A stretch of DNA of 64,000 nt from a virus, in the IMG/VR virus record IMGVR_UViG_3300013125_000002. The stretch is one strand, 5' to 3'. How positions within the stretch are numbered: the first letter of the stretch is position 1; each line of letters begins with the position of its first letter. This document shows positions 304-54,415 of this stretch, one piece after another. The notes under the pieces are model-generated. The model did not search any database and was not told the origin of the DNA. It worked only from the letters and a program-made list of their open reading frames with translations. The position numbers were made by a program, and so were the translations under genes.

Positions 304-921
304 CTATGGGATCTCGAAGAGCTTGCTTGTGGCACTTGCAGGGACCGTCAGTGTTCTACGGTAATTCACTGCAGAGATGACAACGTCCACAACTGCACCC
401 TGTGCGATCTCAAGAACAAAGAAGCCATTCTGATCCGACTTTGCACTAATGAGACCTGACCCAATCCCACCACGGTTTGGAGTTGTTCCCACCAATGCAG
501 GGGCTGACAACACACGAGCACTAATAGATTCATTCACCAGGGCCTGACCATTGAGATCAACTAAGTACCCAGTGAGTGCATTCATCCCCAAGGTCACCGT
601 AGCTGGGATGACAGCTGCTTTCCCAAGATACGGATTGATCGCTGGAGCGGGCAGAGTCCCACCACTGACAAGGTACAAAAGTGTCCCTGGGGTGTTCAGC
701 TCTGCTGCCGAAAAAGCGATCTCATAGTAACCACCCCCGTTCTCACGGAAGTCAGTCACCAAGATTGACTTGGACCCGAAATCTCGATCTGAAGCCTTCT
801 TATAGGTGACTGTGATTTGGTCGAACGTGATCCCAGCTCGTGCCGCACCATCAGTGGCATTCACTGCCTTGAAAGGAAGCCAAGCTAGGACAGCCTGTTG
901 AACTGGGATGTACGTATTCAT
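304..921 (-). CDS. Hypothetical virion-module protein (beta-rich)
   Basis: 205-aa ORF, GGAGAG RBS, tightly packed in the structural operon. Confidence 0.65.
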   Translation of the reverse strand: MNTYIPVQQAVLAWLPFKAVNATDGAARAGITFDQITVTYKKASDRDFGSKSILVTDFRENGGGYYEIAFSAAELNTPGTLLYLVSGGTLPAPAINPYLGKAAVIPATVTLGMNALTGYLVDLNGQALVNESISARVLSAPALVGTTPNRGGIGSGLISAKSDQNGFFVLEIAQGAVVDVVISAVNYRRTLTVPASATSKLFEIP

Positions 922-929
922 AGTCTCTC

Positions 930-1469
930 CTACTGGCCAGCGTCCGGCTTATTCAGTGCCTTCATCTGCCGGAGAAGCTCCTGCATTACCTGCACAGTGA
1001 CCTTCTGGCTTTCCTTGCTCGCTGCGTAGACCTGCTCGGTACGGTTGGCGAATTGGTGCAGAAAGATCAAAGCCGCTGTTAGCAGAGCAAGAAGTGACGC
1101 AACAGCTGTAATGTTCTTACTCTGCTCCACAACCCTTTCCCACAAGCTCTTCTTCAATGGCTTCGTCTCCGCAGAAGGGATTTTGGTCTTCTTTGTGACC
1201 TCGCTGACTGCTTCCTCAGCTGCCTCAGCAGCGGCATCCGCAGCAGCAGCTGTTGACTGCTCGATGCGCGCAAAAAACTGGCGGCGCAACACATTCATGT
1301 TCTTGTCGCAGTCTTCTCGCTTTACCAGTTGCGAGACATGTTGGGTTAGTGTGTCGAGCTTGTCACTTTGAGCAGTCAGTTGCTTGTCTACACCCTTTAC
1401 CGCTTCGGTCAGCCCACCCACTTGGCCAACAAGTGTTAGCAGTACATTGTCTCTCTCAGTCGGTGGCAT
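930..1469 (-). CDS. Coiled-coil protein with one TM helix (holin/XhlA-like topology)
   Basis: N-terminal coiled coil, hydrophobic ITAVASLLALLTAALIFL, GGAGGA RBS. Confidence 0.55.
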   Translation of the reverse strand: MPPTERDNVLLTLVGQVGGLTEAVKGVDKQLTAQSDKLDTLTQHVSQLVKREDCDKNMNVLRRQFFARIEQSTAAAADAAAEAAEEAVSEVTKKTKIPSAETKPLKKSLWERVVEQSKNITAVASLLALLTAALIFLHQFANRTEQVYAASKESQKVTVQVMQELLRQMKALNKPDAGQ

Positions 1470-4600: not shown

Positions 4601-6390
4601 CCAGCCGCAACGTCGGTGTCCCAGGCAAATCGATACTGGCGATAGGTAGTGGTGTAGCTGAGCGGCTTGGCTCGGGCCATGAACTCGATCCCGCCGCCCT
4701 GGTCGTAAAGGATGCCTACCGGTTCGATCCCGACGGTGAGCCGCGCCTGCTGCCCGACCTGCCAGATCGTGCGAGGTGAGGACGGGGCCGCGACCCACGG
4801 CGCCGAGGAGACATCGGACAGGACTTCACCTCGAGTAAGCGCCTGGGGCATGAGCGCGGTCGCGACGCTCCAGTCGATCGTGTAATAAGAAGCGTTGCAG
4901 GTCTGCGAGACGTTGCCTGCCGTCGAGGTGCAAGGGTCAGTGACGTTGTTCTGCTCGTACTGGGCCTCGGCAAGCGCCATAACGCAGCTTCCATGCGTGG
5001 TCGCATAGATCGCAATGCCCTTGTTGTGGGTCGCAGTCGAATCACAGGCCGTGTAGCGCGTCCAAGTAGCTGCGTCGGTGAACGCCGTCGTTGTCCCCGC
5101 ATGCGACGTGTCGGCATAGAAGCCCACCCCGACACAGGTCCCCGAGATCTTCCTTGCATAGATGCTGGCGCACCAGCGCTCACCCGCGGCGATGGTTGCA
5201 ACTCCAGCCGCGACAGCCTTCGTCAAGCTCTGTGTGTCCGCCGAGAAGGTCAGAGAGTCAGCGGTCATCGATCCGTCGGGTGCTTCGTAGCCATTCGCCG
5301 CGACAACAGCGCCACTCACCGTCCACTTGCCCGCGCCCGACTGGTCAAGGTTATTAGGATAGCCGATGTCGTTGGTCGTCGAAGGGCTTCGCGGAAACCC
5401 CAGCCCCGCCGGGTTCGCCGTGCTGACCAATGTCGCATCGTAGCTTGCCGGCCACTGACCCGCAGCGTAGACGCCGAGCCGCTGGCCGAGGCTGTCCGAA
5501 GGGAGAATGCGCTTGGTCGTAGTCGTCTGGCTGTAGGTGATTCCGGTCGGGACCTTGAAAGCTTTGTACCACGTCCCGATTTCCGTCGTAGTGATCAGTC
5601 CGTCGGCGATCAGCGCTTCGGCCACGCTGCCGTTAAGGTAGTTGCCTCCCGCGTTGCTGTATCTGCCCAGCGTGAGATTGCCGTTATTCGTGACAGACCC
5701 CGAGACTGAAGACACGTCGATCGGAGACCCCACATCCTGATTGTCGATACTGAGAACCGCCGTCGAGGCACGATTGACTCGCACTACGATCAGATGCCAA
5801 CCGGGTGCGATAGCCGACGCTCCGAAAGCCGAGTTGATGGTGTGGGCCCCGTCGCTCAGGTACAACGTGGGGTTGATCGCCCCGTACAATTCGAACCCGG
5901 TACCGCCACCTGGACTGGTTCGCTTGCTGAAGAACCGATCACCCGCTTGCGTTGCGTTAACCAGCCCCCACCAGGCCATGGTGAAGTTGCCGGTTGTGAT
6001 GTCCCCGACCGTGCTGCTTGATGCGGCGAAGAGGGCGTCTGTCCCATTGAATCCAATCGCCTTCCGCGTGAAGCCGGCACTCATCGGAATCGGGGTGAAG
6101 AGCGAGTAGGTGGGCGAACCCGACGCGGTGAGCACCGCTGAGTCCCCGGAGAGGTCATCGGTGATGTTGCCCGACGCCTCCTGCATCTTCCAGCGCCATG
6201 CCTTCGACGCTGCCGCAGGCTTGCTCATCCAGTCCTGAGCCTGTTTGTTGAAGTACGTGATCGAGTCGTGGCGGTAGCCGGCGAGGAGCGAGTATCCGAC
6301 AGGTTGCTGCGAAGGCCAAAGCACGACAGCCGCAGCTGCGCCGATGGCAGCAATCGCAGCACTGTAGATGACGTAGCGGTAGCGGTTCAT
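1642..6390 (-). CDS. Giant LamG/concanavalin-A-repeat fibre or head-spike protein (paralogue 1)
   Basis: 1582 aa; LamG-like motifs (WHLIVVRV, WTHAV, WHLVAL), APDGxxTADSL carbohydrate-binding-type modules. Confidence 0.75.
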   Translation of the reverse strand: MNRYRYVIYSAAIAAIGAAAAVVLWPSQQPVGYSLLAGYRHDSITYFNKQAQDWMSKPAAASKAWRWKMQEASGNITDDLSGDSAVLTASGSPTYSLFTPIPMSAGFTRKAIGFNGTDALFAASSSTVGDITTGNFTMAWWGLVNATQAGDRFFSKRTSPGGGTGFELYGAINPTLYLSDGAHTINSAFGASAIAPGWHLIVVRVNRASTAVLSIDNQDVGSPIDVSSVSGSVTNNGNLTLGRYSNAGGNYLNGSVAEALIADGLITTTEIGTWYKAFKVPTGITYSQTTTTKRILPSDSLGQRLGVYAAGQWPASYDATLVSTANPAGLGFPRSPSTTNDIGYPNNLDQSGAGKWTVSGAVVAANGYEAPDGSMTADSLTFSADTQSLTKAVAAGVATIAAGERWCASIYARKISGTCVGVGFYADTSHAGTTTAFTDAATWTRYTACDSTATHNKGIAIYATTHGSCVMALAEAQYEQNNVTDPCTSTAGNVSQTCNASYYTIDWSVATALMPQALTRGEVLSDVSSAPWVAAPSSPRTIWQVGQQARLTVGIEPVGILYDQGGGIEFMARAKPLSYTTTYRQYRFAWDTDVAAGINSSPKTYAAMTVDNKVAPVIISPRNHNATSGLLYQAPSQRDLNGTVLSVGCDPTGSNCSYGAISRVELYTRPSPDQRGATDTDNLITISNTEAGYLNAQAIPRFEKPAGALAANTWIWDMTALGGSLYDRINGIALAPTGSPRYQAFTGLLARGQGRRSMNFVAANTMGVKAPSTTPLAFGNPTNGATVSTLINPKTCSNYDAVVSTQTISAYTQGYSMYLNSACKLTCMILDVGGNYTYSNTADVAAIPTGQWTHAVCAFPRSGATWAKPILYLNAAAQATTNGVQTATGSLANTQAFAIGSGARGALTYFNGQIGEVKVEINKAMTAGEVLTEYQQSTQQGAYWTDDAYTAGHFYLNEASVGAGIGLRDHSGNGNHLTVLGAAAPTVQFADLPYPMGTGLTKPAIGVSGTSDIFSSAATTTANVSGTQPWSIAAWIRVAAPAPGFRRNVFRHFGAGSPYGVSLQYHPDDYWISYFGDLGIITTAAGIADSRWHLVALKLVWDGAHWNAQISQDGAAFGNGAARTAANAIGNPNVAIDVGEGAAGISTVDIAGLMITNNYALTDADVASYAKFGAKTNSLITYARANASCFDVGSHQSDGMQVACFGANQYPYAYASTAVGVPGNARLGLGQPVAASVTNLTKYGTAFNSWTGGQATVVANSVAAPDGTLTADSLVEDGSVSGHYVVTAAASVAPSAATARNCIYAKKGTRNWVFVQTTNNTSPYGYFNVSTCTPGTMYAGATNATATGVGGGWCLCCFDWTATAAAFNVYIGGASADADPNYSYAGVNGTIALYLWSAEAQQPPVTGLHCPTTGNATATCSGPTSNYVASASMTGWDRVQGAIGVTAVPGASGAYALQFEDGADQNGEINIRLPTADASLYNSSHVLQQNPSLANLVTGSATGAILIYDSQNAFYTDPAGATHRSFGHTFQSSYAGPWPTYTGGTSSNWTHGGGTNLYLGYQRGGSNYLNGNLVNVSIWKTR

Positions 6391-49751: not shown

Positions 49752-49771
49752 CTATTCAGTTGTCAAGATCA
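49752..49771 (-). promoter_or_regulatory. rrn-type boxA-like antitermination element
   Basis: TGATCTTGACAACTGAATAG resembles boxA-containing rRNA leader/spacer sequences. Confidence 0.5.
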
Positions 49772-50249: not shown

Positions 50250-50302
50250 AATAGCTCTCGAACCAACCGGTGCATTTGAGCTTGTGCATGATCTTGCCTC
50301 CG

Positions 50303-50374
50303 TGGGTGGTCTAGGAGTCGAACCTAGATTTGCGGGGTTACGGCCCGGTGCTCTACCAGTTGAACTAACCACCC
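50303..50374 (-). tRNA. tRNA-Tyr(GUA), short variable loop; first tRNA of the operon
   Basis: GGG-CCGTAAC-CCC anticodon arm. Confidence 0.8.
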
Positions 50375-50375
50375 C

Positions 50376-50412
50376 AAATGCGAAAAGGCCGCCAGGTTTC
50401 CCAGGCGGCCTC
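50376..50412 (-). terminator. Intrinsic terminator (attenuator) immediately before the tRNA array
   Basis: AGGCCGCCTGG-GAAA-CCTGGCGGCCT-TTTCGCATTT. Confidence 0.85.
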
Positions 50413-50438
50413 TCGAGTTCTACTCTGCTTCCTCTCGA

Positions 50439-50591
50439 TTAGCCGCCTGGCGCTCCATGCTCGAGAGGATTCGGGTACTGCTTGGTACCCAGATCCACCG
50501 AGCTGACGGGGCGCGCACTAAACGCACACGTCCCGCGCCAGCTCTGAATGGCTGCCCTGGACAATGTGCGTTTGGCGGCTTCGCGTCTCAT
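50439..50591 (-). CDS. 50-aa attenuator leader peptide containing all 20 amino acids (not in ORF track)
   Basis: MRREAAKRTLSRAAIQSWRGTCAFSARPVSSVDLGTKQYPNPLEHGAPGG*; last codons CCAGGCGGC complement the terminator 5' arm. Confidence 0.75.
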   Translation of the reverse strand: MRREAAKRTLSRAAIQSWRGTCAFSARPVSSVDLGTKQYPNPLEHGAPGG

Positions 50592-50595
50592 GATT

Positions 50596-50629
50596 CTTCA
50601 CTTGTGAACCATGTGGTCGCGTTTGTCAA
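50596..50629 (-). promoter_or_regulatory. Probable promoter of the leader/tRNA operon
   Basis: TTGACA at 50624-50629; -10 region weak and overlapped by TTCAC-AA-GTGAA palindrome. Confidence 0.5.
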
Positions 50630-50945
50630 TCCCCTTTTTTGAACTTTCCGTTTGACTTGATCTTCGTAGTCGGGAGCGTCTGGTACAGCCCCAGCCGTAG
50701 GTAGCTCCAGCCCCGGCTATCACACACCCGACGAACACTGGAATGGCCCGCGGTCGCGAACCCTGCACACGGACGGGCTCGAACGACGTGAGCGAGAACG
50801 TGTATGCCGGGTGGCGTAGCGCCTCGCGCTTGGTTGCAAACCGTGCGGCGTCGGCAACGTTCTGGGTACAGCGCGGCCCGATACCCGTCCACTCTCTGAA
50901 GTAGCCGCTCCGCGGACATTTGAGAACCCAGTTCCGCTTGGTCAT
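50598..50945 (-). CDS. Hypothetical protein
   Basis: 115 aa, abuts upstream gene. Confidence 0.45.
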   Translation of the reverse strand: MTKRNWVLKCPRSGYFREWTGIGPRCTQNVADAARFATKREALRHPAYTFSLTSFEPVRVQGSRPRAIPVFVGCVIAGAGATYGWGCTRRSRLRRSSQTESSKKGIDKRDHMVHK

Positions 50946-50946
50946 C

Positions 50947-51345
50947 TTACGCCTCCCTTTCCAGATCAGTCGGCTCTACACGCTGAGGCAGGACCGGCGA
51001 GATGAACAGACCCAGCGCGTTGCGTCGGCCATGCTCGGTCTCGTTGGCCTTGCTACGCTTCTGGATCTGGAAGTCCACCGGCAGACCTGAATGCTGCGAG
51101 AGGTAGAGTGAGATCGACGAGCACATGACCGACCACAGGGCGTTGTGCTGCTGGTGGCAGTCGGGGAAGAGCCGGTCGTACTCCTCGTCATCAAGGATCG
51201 CACGCACGTCCACATCACGGTAGTCGCGGCGCTCGAGGCAGGACCCCACGAGGAACACGCCGCCATTGAACGCCTGCGCGATCACACAGCACGCCTGATT
51301 CAGATTGAAGAAGTGTGGGGCTGGCAGCCAGTTTGCGCGTTCCAT
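50947..51345 (-). CDS. Minimal nucleotidyltransferase (Pol-beta superfamily)
   Basis: FLVGS..RDYRDVDVR..PVDFQ (hG[GS]..DxD..D). Confidence 0.7.
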   Translation of the reverse strand: MERANWLPAPHFFNLNQACCVIAQAFNGGVFLVGSCLERRDYRDVDVRAILDDEEYDRLFPDCHQQHNALWSVMCSSISLYLSQHSGLPVDFQIQKRSKANETEHGRRNALGLFISPVLPQRVEPTDLEREA

Positions 51346-52475: not shown

Positions 52476-53291
52476 CTATCGCTTTCTGTCTTGAAGTGGC
52501 TGACCAGAAGCGATGAAGGCCTCCAGCTCTTCCTGGGTCATCCAGCCATCGATCTGAGTAGTCCGACCAGTGTTCACCCAGAAGTGAAGTGAACCATCCT
52601 TCCGACGGTTGGGAGAGCAACAGAGTGCTGTTGGGTAGTACCTACCGTTGGAGGTCTTTTTGATCGCCTCGTTGATCCGTTTGAGGAGGTCTTTGCCAAG
52701 ATCCTCATCAGCAAACTGCTGATCAACTTCTGCTTCGGTTTCCTTGGCGATCTTCTGTACCGCCAAGAACTTCCGGTAGGCTCGGTTATCGGGTGGTTCG
52801 GAAAAGGGGTTCCAATTGAAGAAAGTCGAAAGAGCATTGCCCCCAAAAACACCACCACAGTGGGCTGCCCCCAACACCTCAAGAAGCTTCTCCTCAGGGG
52901 CACCCACAGCACTGCTAGCCGCCTTCGTCATCGAGGCAACAGGATCGTTTGGGTCCCATTCCAGGACGACATGGGTGATGAGTTTAGCAAGCTTCGCACA
53001 TTCCTTCTTCTGATCTTGCCCTGGGTGGTAATACCCATCAAAGTAGCAAGAACCCGTTCCAAGAACGAGATCACCAACACCAGGGAGGTTGCACCCACCC
53101 TCGCTCTTGTAGATGCTGCACTCATGCGTGTGGAACGCACCAGTGAGATGGTAGGTCCCAACTTGTGAGATCACAGTTTGGAACAATCTCGAGACATGAA
53201 AAAGAAGCTTTGGGACTGGTTCGAATCCATAAGCCCCAGGACGACCATCCTCGTCTAGCTTCTTGGGCTTGGCTTCGTTGGTGAACGTCAT
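52476..53291 (-). CDS. Hypothetical protein
   Basis: 271 aa, start abuts upstream stop. Confidence 0.6.
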   Translation of the reverse strand: MTFTNEAKPKKLDEDGRPGAYGFEPVPKLLFHVSRLFQTVISQVGTYHLTGAFHTHECSIYKSEGGCNLPGVGDLVLGTGSCYFDGYYHPGQDQKKECAKLAKLITHVVLEWDPNDPVASMTKAASSAVGAPEEKLLEVLGAAHCGGVFGGNALSTFFNWNPFSEPPDNRAYRKFLAVQKIAKETEAEVDQQFADEDLGKDLLKRINEAIKKTSNGRYYPTALCCSPNRRKDGSLHFWVNTGRTTQIDGWMTQEELEAFIASGQPLQDRKR

Positions 53292-54415
53292 TAGTCTTCC
53301 CCTTCCTTCTTGTCCGTGTAGAGATGAGCCAGACGCTCACCCTCGGTTGGTCCCTTCCAGAATGCCTCAATCCACATCCGCTTGCGAAGCGTCCTTCCTG
53401 GTCCATAGGCCTGGTCCCGCCAGTGCCCACGCACCACGAAACGCTTCTTGATTGTCCAGGCTGACTCGTCCAAATACTGAGACCGAGCCGCTTGAACTAG
53501 CTCCTTGGAAAGTTTGATCTCCTTGCCGAGGAGCCAAACTATAGGCTTCCTCTCGAAGGTAGTTTCGGTCTTGGAAGCTCGCCGCTTGGCCTTCTTGGTC
53601 GTGTACTGAACTTGCCTCTCTCCCTTGCCTCGCTCTGCAACATAGAGACAGAGATTGATGATGAGCTTCCAGCAACGATTCATGTTCTCGATCTCCTCTG
53701 CCGAAAGTGCAAAGGAGTCTGGGCCTCCGATCTCATTCTGGTTAGAGCGGCTGATGTTCTCGAGCCACTCACCAAGAGTCATCGAAGAGTCTTCATCCGG
53801 CAGGCGTACCTGAGAGAACGAGATCGAACCACGCTTCCCGAGCATCAGAAGCATGGCTGATGGTTCCTTGAAGAGAGTAGAGCCCCTTGTCACAACCGCC
53901 ATGGTGACAGGATCGGGTTGGCTATCATAGGGGCTGATCATGGCCAACAAGGCGACGGACAGCGCTGCCAGCTGCAGCAACCGCTTCCGCAGCTCTACTT
54001 TGGCGTGCGGGTTGTCACGCTGCACCTCATCTAGCTTCACCACGCGCTTTCGGAGCATGCGACGCCACTCCTCGATTCCCCACGTCCCGTTAGCCTCCCC
54101 CCACAAGAACGTCTGGATCTCCCTCGCGGCACAAATCGCATCCCTGATCTTCGCGTCCTCTACATCGACCAGCCCCGCCTCCAACTCCGCGACCCGCTTC
54201 TCAGCCACACGGAGGTTCAACACCAGCTCTTCGCAGCGTACTTTGTAGGTCTGATCCGGAAAGTGATGCTCACCTAAGTAGGCAAGCTTCTCCAGCTCAG
54301 CGATCTGCTGCTTGAGCTGAGCTGTATCCTCTTCCTTTGTGAGCGCATCTCGACAGCCACGAACATAGCAGTCACATGCACCGCCACAGTCCTCGTGGTC
54401 ACACCTCTTGTCCAT
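53291..54415 (-). CDS. Composite hypothetical protein with a MazG-like helical segment
   Basis: W..ML..ELRKRLLQLAALSVA; C-terminal VRGHWR..GPGR..WIEAFWKG. Confidence 0.5.
   Translation of the reverse strand: MDKRCDHEDCGGACDCYVRGCRDALTKEEDTAQLKQQIAELEKLAYLGEHHFPDQTYKVRCEELVLNLRVAEKRVAELEAGLVDVEDAKIRDAICAAREIQTFLWGEANGTWGIEEWRRMLRKRVVKLDEVQRDNPHAKVELRKRLLQLAALSVALLAMISPYDSQPDPVTMAVVTRGSTLFKEPSAMLLMLGKRGSISFSQVRLPDEDSSMTLGEWLENISRSNQNEIGGPDSFALSAEEIENMNRCWKLIINLCLYVAERGKGERQVQYTTKKAKRRASKTETTFERKPIVWLLGKEIKLSKELVQAARSQYLDESAWTIKKRFVVRGHWRDQAYGPGRTLRKRMWIEAFWKGPTEGERLAHLYTDKKEGED

Follow-up and report, generated by a model that had tools for sequence, protein, structure and literature searches.

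A phage leader ORF sampling most tRNA classes within a putative ribosome-mediated attenuator ahead of a tRNA array

The leader region and its elements

We analysed a 64,000-nucleotide (nt) stretch of DNA (the window) from the IMG/VR virus record IMGVR_UViG_3300013125_000002, a phage whose listed sequencing runs are of lake-water DNA, and focused on a leader region at 50376-50629 on the minus strand, directly ahead of a large tRNA array. The order on this strand is TTGACA, ATG, an open reading frame (ORF) of 50 codons, a terminator hairpin, UUUUCGCAUUU, and tRNA-Tyr. An earlier note on this DNA had listed a TTGACA element, a 50-codon ORF and a GC-rich terminator with a U tract ahead of the first tRNA, and had read them as an attenuator gating the array. 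All of these elements are in place. The features of the region, from the putative promoter to the first tRNA, are as follows.

50624-50629, minus strand: -35 element TTGACA, preceded by an A tract (AAAAAAGGGGA) that resembles an UP element; putative promoter
50601-50606, minus strand: candidate -10 hexamer CACAAG, weak, 17 nt past the -35 element and 9 nt before the ATG
50439-50591, minus strand: leader ORF of 50 codons, ATG at 50591 and TAA at 50441-50439, supported by codon analysis and homologues
50574-50580, minus strand: segment 1, AGCCGCC, codons 4-6, pairing with segment 2; candidate anti-antiterminator when the leader is free of ribosomes
50507-50538, minus strand: hairpin C within the ORF, codons W-x-G-T-C-x-F-x-x-R-P; from the consensus fold, three pairs changed on both sides
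50459-50503, minus strand: hairpin D within the ORF, GCTCGRGGG...CCCTCGAGC; from the consensus fold, three pairs changed on both sides
50441-50450, minus strand: segment 2, CCAGGCGGC plus the U of the stop codon, comprising the Pro-Gly-Gly codons; antiterminator 5' strand
50413-50438, minus strand: antiterminator extension helix and loop, UCGAG (50438-50434) pairing with CUCGA (50417-50413); 4-6 base pairs (bp) in every member of the family
50401-50410, minus strand: segment 3, GGCCGCCUGG, common to antiterminator and terminator; pairing in 8 DNA copies
50387-50396, minus strand: segment 4, CCUGGCGGCC, terminator 3' arm, with a U:U mismatch facing segment 3
50376-50386, minus strand: U tract UUUUCGCAUUU; 6-8 U in relatives
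50302-50374, minus strand: tRNA-Tyr(GUA), first tRNA of a 45-tRNA array that runs down to 42528

The end of the ORF and the terminator share complementary sequence. The codons CCA GGC GGC (50450-50442) are the exact complement of GCCGCCTGG (50410-50401), including the T:T position of the terminator, and match GCCGCCUGG within the terminator 5' arm with exact complementarity. TCGAG (50438-50434) and CTCGA (50417-50413) lengthen this segment 2:3 helix; both pairings had been pointed out before. The terminator hairpin consists of GGCCGCCUGG-GAAA-CCUGGCGGCC (50410-50387) and contains the U:U mismatch. Its T run in the window includes four U only, and the last T lies 8 nt before tRNA-Tyr. Because the terminator ends this close to the gene, there is no room for a separate tRNA-Tyr promoter.

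The leader ORF covers most tRNA classes

The peptide encoded in the window holds all 20 amino acids, with C, D, F, H, I, M, N, W and Y occurring once each, and the ORF uses 40 distinct codons against 34.3 expected from uniform draws, in agreement with the earlier counts. A full set of amino acids is not rare in itself, being found in 3 of the 116 window ORFs of 45-55 amino acids. Coverage was also counted over 44 bacterial isoacceptor classes, in which NNY codons form one class, NNA and NNG codons are kept separate, CGA is grouped with CGY, and AUA has a class of its own. By this measure the leader ORF covers 37 of the 44 classes, and the codons that had been named as unsampled (CGG, TTA, CTA, TCA, GTA, CAA and ATA) are exactly its missing classes.

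This coverage stands out from its background. Stretches of 50 codons drawn 20,000 times from real genes of the phage covered 25.2 ± 2.8 classes, with a maximum of 34, and uniform random codons covered 29.3 ± 2.2. Among 600 ORFs of 30-90 codons in the six frames of the window, the leader ORF was the top outlier (z = 3.73; next, 2.52), and the homologous ORFs were likewise the top outliers among the small ORFs of two related contigs, L090 and L091. The ORF matched no Pfam or PHROG family, and a search of 50376-50700 against Rfam returned no family besides tRNA at E ≤ 1, with neither a T-box nor a known leader family (such as those of Trp, His, Thr, Leu or Phe) among the results.

Homologous leaders precede tRNA arrays in other phage genomes

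The collection of cultured phages contained no DNA similar to the window. Other copies of the locus in public assemblies are identical to it, and three of them (L001-L003) are 100% identical across the leader, hence no microvariation could be read from them. A search with the Ro60 gene, which lies within the array region, led to the viral contig L090, which encodes a Ro60 protein 47% identical to that of the window, carries the same tRNA order, and has a homologous leader upstream. An exhaustive profile search with the 50-residue peptide returned four called proteins of 49-54 amino acids. Further loci came from peptide-pattern and DNA-pattern searches and from nhmmer, with the more distant member L102 found only after nhmmer filtering. 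Together these give nine distinct leaders: those of the window, L092, L096, L093 (on the same contig as L090), L095, L097 (on the same contig as L091), L098 and L102, all available as DNA, and P0127, available as protein only. The nine peptides are 49-54 amino acids long and 51-72% identical.

All eight DNA leaders lie directly 5' of the tRNA-Tyr that heads the array, this gene being identified by eye in some copies. The array begins with Tyr, Lys, Lys, Gln in L090 and L102 and continues with Lys, Lys, Gln in L091, where tRNA-Tyr was located by eye. Downstream there are 36-45 tRNAs with nearly all anticodons. The genes upstream of the leader differ from member to member, with an orphan ORF in the window, a J-domain gene in L090, and others elsewhere.

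The tRNA-Tyr genes themselves vary. The leaders of L092 (1452-1830) and L096 (94-480) are one ORF base apart, and the tRNA-Tyr genes that follow, both of the long-variable-arm type, are clearly different; this contrast suggests recombination at the terminator/tRNA boundary. In the window, L093 and L098 the tRNA-Tyr is of the short-arm type. In L091, a long-arm tRNA-Tyr(GUA) that ARAGORN missed follows immediately after the leader (4841-4930).

A short relative, L267, has a leader of 30 codons with 17 kinds of amino acid. It precedes a stretch of 140 nt and a single tRNA-Ile, on a contig with five tRNAs only. The stretch, about 140 GC-rich nt between terminator and tRNA-Ile (865-1010, minus strand), had no Rfam match above threshold. 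Because the diversity of the L267 leader is not significant, the all-codon property is confined to the 50-codon subfamily that precedes large arrays. Two cultured phages that combine Ro60 with a tRNA array were also inspected. Mycobacterium phage I3 has no analogous leader in the right place or orientation, and the only candidate in Gordonia phage Sixama lies on the opposite strand (z = 2.4) and was rejected.

The ORF is kept open and its composition is under selection

In the seven members tested, the leader frame is the only open one. Within the ORF, the seven close members show six gap events, each of 3 or 6 nt, whereas gaps 3' of the stop codon are mostly of 1, 2, 4 or 5 nt. Start and stop positions are conserved, and the stop codon may be TAA, TAG or TGA. 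These patterns indicate that the ORF is conserved as a reading frame. Codon differences, in turn, are about 2:1 non-synonymous to synonymous, and the three codon positions differ about equally, which indicates weak constraint on the amino-acid sequence. The residues that are best conserved fall on hairpins C and D and on segment 2.

Despite this divergence, the composition is maintained. That homologues would diverge in sequence and keep amino-acid completeness had been set out beforehand as a test, and all nine peptides hold all 20 amino acids. Single residues move without being lost: Asp occupies seven alignment columns, none of them common to all members; in L097 the Cys of the common column is gone but a Cys stands at another position, and the same holds for His and Ile in L093; and Asn has moved in L095 and P0127. 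Two null models that keep the ancestry of the sequences were applied. The first, a drift null, mutated the same sites with the same base changes per codon and treated shared derived codons as one event, and all seven other members stayed complete in 17 of 150,000 runs. In the second, columns were shuffled among eight sequences, and all were complete in 1 of 100,000 runs.

Coverage of the tRNA classes is preserved as well. The eight DNA members cover 37, 38, 38, 37, 34, 41, 40 and 38 of the 44 classes, within 1-4 of the maximum possible for each peptide. Under the drift null, coverage regresses to about 30 ± 1, and none of 20,000 runs attained the mean of 38 seen in the family. Given the peptide, synonymous choice is over-dispersed in seven of the eight members (P = 0.03 to 0.0002). 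The seven close members use 40-44 distinct codons in 50-54, and L102 uses 39 of 50. The remaining five frames of the same DNA cover 24-33 classes and 14-19 kinds of amino acid.

These comparisons indicate that amino-acid and isoacceptor coverage is under selection. Such completeness and coverage would be expected if the ORF acts through its decoding, but not if it acts through the peptide or the RNA structure. We are highly confident that the leader ORF is a translated element selected for codon coverage.

Two predicted, mutually exclusive helices at the 3' end of the leader

The whole leader folds with a predicted free energy of -109.5 kcal/mol (z = -6.05). Its consensus fold comprises a closing helix between segments 1 and 2 (AGCCGCC with GGCGGCU), hairpins C and D with six compensatory pairs, and the terminator.

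A terminator is predicted in 8/8 DNA copies as a GC-rich hairpin followed by 4-8 U and ending 5-13 nt before tRNA-Tyr. Segment 2 (CCWGGCGGC plus the stop-codon U) and segment 3 can form 10 bp and are complementary in all eight copies. The extension helix of 4-6 bp is present in every member, with a shifted register in L097, L098 and L102. In each of the eight members the predicted antiterminator (-26.6 to -28.5 kcal/mol) is more stable than the terminator (-18.2 to -22.6 kcal/mol), the 2:3 helix being 6-10 kcal/mol stronger. The predicted 2:3 helix excludes the terminator, and a ribosome that has reached the last codons would cover its 5' strand. In 8/8 members the stop codon directly adjoins segment 2, and segment 3 starts 30-32 nt past the stop. 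Thus, the overlapping alternative helices and their geometry are conserved features of the predicted leader RNA.

Covariation of antiterminator and terminator among homologues, which had also been anticipated, was borne out in part. In L095, CCA in segment 2 has become the synonymous CCT and a T in segment 3 has become A, which converts A:U to U:A; the change in segment 3 also turns the terminator mismatch into a pair. This is the one compensatory pair found in the 2:3 helix, and a shuffle control was not significant (70/500) because the helix is nearly invariant. Pairing between segments 1 and 2 is seen in the consensus fold and in five of the eight minimum-energy folds of the free leader.

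Ribosome position and predicted folding

We computed equilibrium pairing with a ribosome represented as a mask of 28 nt at successive positions along the ORF. With the A site in the last 6-7 codons or at the stop, the terminator was predicted with a probability of about 1 in 8/8 members, in line with the earlier proposal that a ribosome reaching the stop keeps the array off. That proposal had also held that a stall at any upstream codon gives readthrough, and here the outcome was mixed. Upstream stalls made the antiterminator dominant nearly everywhere in L092 and L096 and, in the window and L102, at the majority of positions, but a zone in the middle of the ORF still favoured the terminator. 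Equilibrium folding thus firmly supports one half of the switch in this model and the other half partly, and does not support the notion that any stall gives readthrough.

The decision between terminator and antiterminator is presumably kinetic. At bacterial rates fifty codons are translated in about 3 s, and the polymerase takes a similar time to arrive at the terminator. We read the leader more as a race, or a sensor of elongation speed, than as a sensor of a single stalled codon. Total transit time through the ORF, summed over a near-uniform sample of tRNAs, would then determine if segment 2 is still exposed or already covered as segment 3 emerges.

Putative promoter, initiation and extent of the operon

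In 8 of 9 DNA copies, TTGAC(A/T) lies 35-38 nt ahead of the start codon, preceded by an A or T tract and followed by a spacer of variable sequence. A weak -10-like hexamer (TACACA, TACAAA, TACACC or CACAAG) lies 7-9 nt before the AUG, and the corresponding hexamer in L267, TAAAGT, is a good one. Because the leader ORF has no Shine-Dalgarno sequence, its mRNA is probably leaderless or nearly so, which is the simplest interpretation. A called ORF of 115 amino acids (window 50598-50945, minus strand) reaches into this region, its last 32 nt overlapping the -35 and -10 elements of the leader; it had no homologue in 5.8 billion proteins.

Downstream, the leader transcript might extend to the Y-RNA-like genes and Ro60 at 44538-42886, as the earlier note proposed. 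No minus-strand terminator was seen in the tRNA array, but internal TTGACA elements lie at 49766, 44803 and 42932.

The spacer between tRNA-Tyr and tRNA-Lys (window 50301-50240, minus strand) is conserved and found at the same place in L092, L093, L095-L098 and L102. It reads GGAGG, 5-7 nt, and then ATG-xxx-AAG-CTC-AAA-CGC/TGC ... AGC-TAT-TGC (M-x-K-L-K-R/C ... S-Y-C), in a frame that enters tRNA-Lys(UUU) and contains a single AAG and a single AAA codon immediately ahead of the tRNA-Lys genes with CUU and UUU anticodons. The sequences GGAGGCAA and TTGCCTCC, the latter located at the 5' acceptor strand of tRNA-Lys, are complementary. No terminator is visible in this spacer, which may form a structure for processing or represent another translated element, one related to Lys.

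A proposed mechanism for decoding-controlled attenuation

Based on these comparative and structural data, we propose that the leader is probably a ribosome-mediated, trp-type attenuator placed before the tRNA array, with an ORF shaped to sample the decoding repertoire. The homologues thus lend support to the attenuator interpretation first put forward from the window's sequence. We infer the translation of the leader, the start of transcription, the polarity of the switch and the role of tRNA supply as its signal from sequence.

First, transcription would start from the TTGACA promoter at or just before the AUG, yielding an mRNA that is probably leaderless. A ribosome would then translate the 50 codons, which in the window call for 20 amino acids and for 37 of 44 tRNA classes, nearly all of them a single time. 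The last three codons and the stop form segment 2, the perfect partner of the terminator 5' arm (segment 3). A ribosome that keeps abreast of the polymerase would be parked at the end of the ORF as segment 3 emerges, covering segment 2, so that segments 3 and 4 could fold and transcription would stop 8 nt before tRNA-Tyr. If decoding were slow, whether through depleted, cleaved or uncharged tRNAs or through a general slowing, segment 2 would be left free, the 2:3 helix would form, and the polymerase would read through into the tRNAs. With no ribosome on the leader, segment 1 and the two internal hairpins may sequester segment 2 and thereby lead to termination. The outcome would be a feedback loop in which phage tRNAs are made when decoding is limiting, be it through turnover of host tRNAs, tRNA-cleaving defence nucleases or amino-acid starvation. 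The regulated genes would be tied to the sensed quantity by a logical link, tRNAs standing downstream of a sensor of decoding.

In its most specific form, the proposal is of a leaderless 'speedometer' ORF that presents a near-uniform sample of codons and tRNAs, races the polymerase, and turns on the tRNA set upon any shortfall in decoding. We regard the chances of this version as evenly balanced.

Several observations weigh against the proposal. The rare amino acids are represented by single codons, whereas classical leaders use runs of the sensed codon. Mid-ORF stalls, with the A site at about codons 27-39, still predict the terminator, as do several other positions in L093, L095, L097 and L098, and the single His codon of the window and L095 lies at the edge of the zone in which a stalled ribosome covers segment 2. 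The free leader is finely balanced, its terminator probability ranging from 0.04 to 0.98 across members. Covariation in the antiterminator amounts to the single event described above, with its non-significant control, and for the pairing of segments 1 and 2 no covariation was seen, this pairing being weaker in L093, L098 and L102. As to initiation, genes of this phage usually have GGAG or GAGG, which the leader ORF lacks; L102 starts with GUG, 48 nt past the -35 element and with a purine-rich stretch upstream; and a generic sigma-70 scan called no promoter at the leader, where the -10 element is weak. Finally, the leader of L267 precedes one tRNA and is not significantly diverse.

Alternative explanations

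Four other accounts of the locus were considered. In the first, the ORF does sense decoding but acts through another output, such as the processing or stability of the tRNA precursor, access of Rho, or a switch of reversed polarity. Such an output would fit the absence of a uniform antiterminator across stall positions at equilibrium, a window terminator that may be weak with its mismatch and four U only, and the conserved GGAGG and ATG between tRNA-Tyr and tRNA-Lys. It does not account for the trp-type anatomy: the stop flush with segment 2 and the 2:3 helix stronger than 3:4, both in 8/8 members, the spacing of 30-32 nt, the compensatory change that joins segments 2, 3 and 4, and the six to eight U after the hairpin in most relatives. 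We consider this account unlikely.

Alternatively, the ORF could be an ordinary small-protein gene with a functional 50-residue product, followed by a leaky terminator, the full amino-acid set and the complementarity being by-products. Frame and length are indeed conserved in nine members, gene callers annotated the ORF in four assemblies, and the motifs W-x-G-T-C-x-F-x-x-R-P and P-G-G are kept. These conserved residues, however, fall on hairpins C and D and on segment 2, in a peptide that is otherwise weakly constrained (about 2 non-synonymous changes for each synonymous one) and has no Pfam or PHROG match. Moreover, a selected product leaves unexplained the over-dispersed synonymous codons, the coverage of 34-41 of 44 classes, and single residues that move yet are never lost, which makes this account very unlikely.

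It is just as improbable, or slightly more so, that the region specifies a structured non-coding RNA, about 215 nt long, that has a promoter and a terminator of its own and in which the open frame is incidental. The stable fold relative to shuffled sequences, the compensatory changes in hairpins C and D and the lack of a Shine-Dalgarno sequence are what such an RNA would display, and leader nucleotides are 85% identical between the window and L090, against 47% amino-acid identity in Ro60. An incidental frame is hard to reconcile with in-ORF indels that are all multiples of three in the seven close members, unlike those of the 3' part, with the single open frame in the seven members tested, and with amino-acid and tRNA-class diversity that is confined to this frame and kept against drift; there is also no Rfam match. 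A terminated leader RNA acting in trans could coexist with attenuation.

A chance ORF beside an ordinary terminator of the upstream genes has a negligible probability: full amino-acid sets do occur in a few window ORFs of this length, and GC-rich repeats such as GCCGCC and GGCGGC pair easily, but the comparative data, barring a mistake in them, already refute it, with ORF, completeness and coverage conserved in nine members against ancestry-keeping nulls, the top rank among 600 ORFs, and a leader that stays with the array while upstream genes vary.

Relation to known regulatory leaders

Trp-type attenuators combine a translated leader ORF, mutually exclusive 1:2, 2:3 and 3:4 helices, and a stop codon that places the ribosome over segment 2. 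The amino-acid-operon attenuators (trpL, hisL, pheL, leuL, thrL and the multivalent leader of ilvGMEDA) have the four-segment anatomy that is proposed for the phage leader, with the terminator before the regulated genes. The phage leader departs from them in its regulatory codons, ORF length and regulated genes, and probably in leaderless initiation. Its ORF has 50 codons rather than 14-32. Instead of the run of regulatory codons that characterizes amino-acid-operon leaders, the phage ORFs contain no codon run or enrichment and cover 34-41 of the 44 classes evenly, mostly once each. The genes downstream specify tRNAs instead of biosynthetic enzymes. Unlike those leaders, it is phage-encoded, probably leaderless and without a match to any Rfam leader family.

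The position of the ribosome likewise reports the state of translation in ermCL and catA86L, which respond to antibiotics, in the PA5471.1 leader of armZ/MexXY, and in the bmrB leader of bmrCD. Leaders of this type respond to drug-bound ribosomes at peptide motifs, and many act on translation initiation. To our knowledge, no leader among them controls tRNA genes or spans the entire set of codons. In T-box riboswitches, too, the state of a tRNA decides between terminator and antiterminator. A T-box binds one uncharged tRNA directly and without a ribosome, whereas the phage leader is proposed to sense most tRNAs through decoding, and it has no specifier loop, T-box motif or Rfam T-box match.

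The earlier note knew of no description of such a system in phage tRNA arrays, and full-text literature searches likewise found neither a pan-amino-acid leader nor attenuation of a tRNA array. Current views of phage tRNAs invoke the matching of codon usage, the replacement of degraded tRNAs and the evasion of tRNA-targeting defence, and are silent on when the tRNAs are produced. If the proposed mechanism is correct, the leader would be the first sensor of whole-cell decoding capacity, covering 20 amino acids and some 85-90% of tRNA classes. Attenuation of the trp type would then apply to RNA genes as well, and the on-demand supply of tRNAs by a phage would have an explanation. The 'every codon once' design would be an unusual and clear case of an ORF selected for its composition rather than its product, and the leader family offers natural variants for comparison.

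Neighbouring genes and a repeated motif

Upstream of the leader, the 115-amino-acid ORF mentioned above starts 1 nt after a gene for a 132-amino-acid protein (window 50947-51345, minus strand). This protein belongs to no Pfam or PHROG family and has 347 homologues at E ≤ 0.001, many of them 55-70% identical, in phage and metagenome contigs, with invariant G-S and R-D-V-D motifs. The gene was tried as a synteny marker and discarded: 0 of the 60 viral loci checked had a tRNA array downstream, and it is not syntenic with the leader. Further upstream lies a gene for a 374-amino-acid protein (window 53291-54415, minus strand). A precomputed match to Pfam PF26125 (AcrVA2-like) exists for it in an identical public contig, and our own Pfam scan gave a weak MerR-type match only.

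Elsewhere in the window, a shared 10-mer, CTAGAACCAG, lies within 7-26 nt downstream of TTGACA at three places on the minus strand (37030, 35841 and 16455), and this combination may represent a phage-specific promoter or operator motif.

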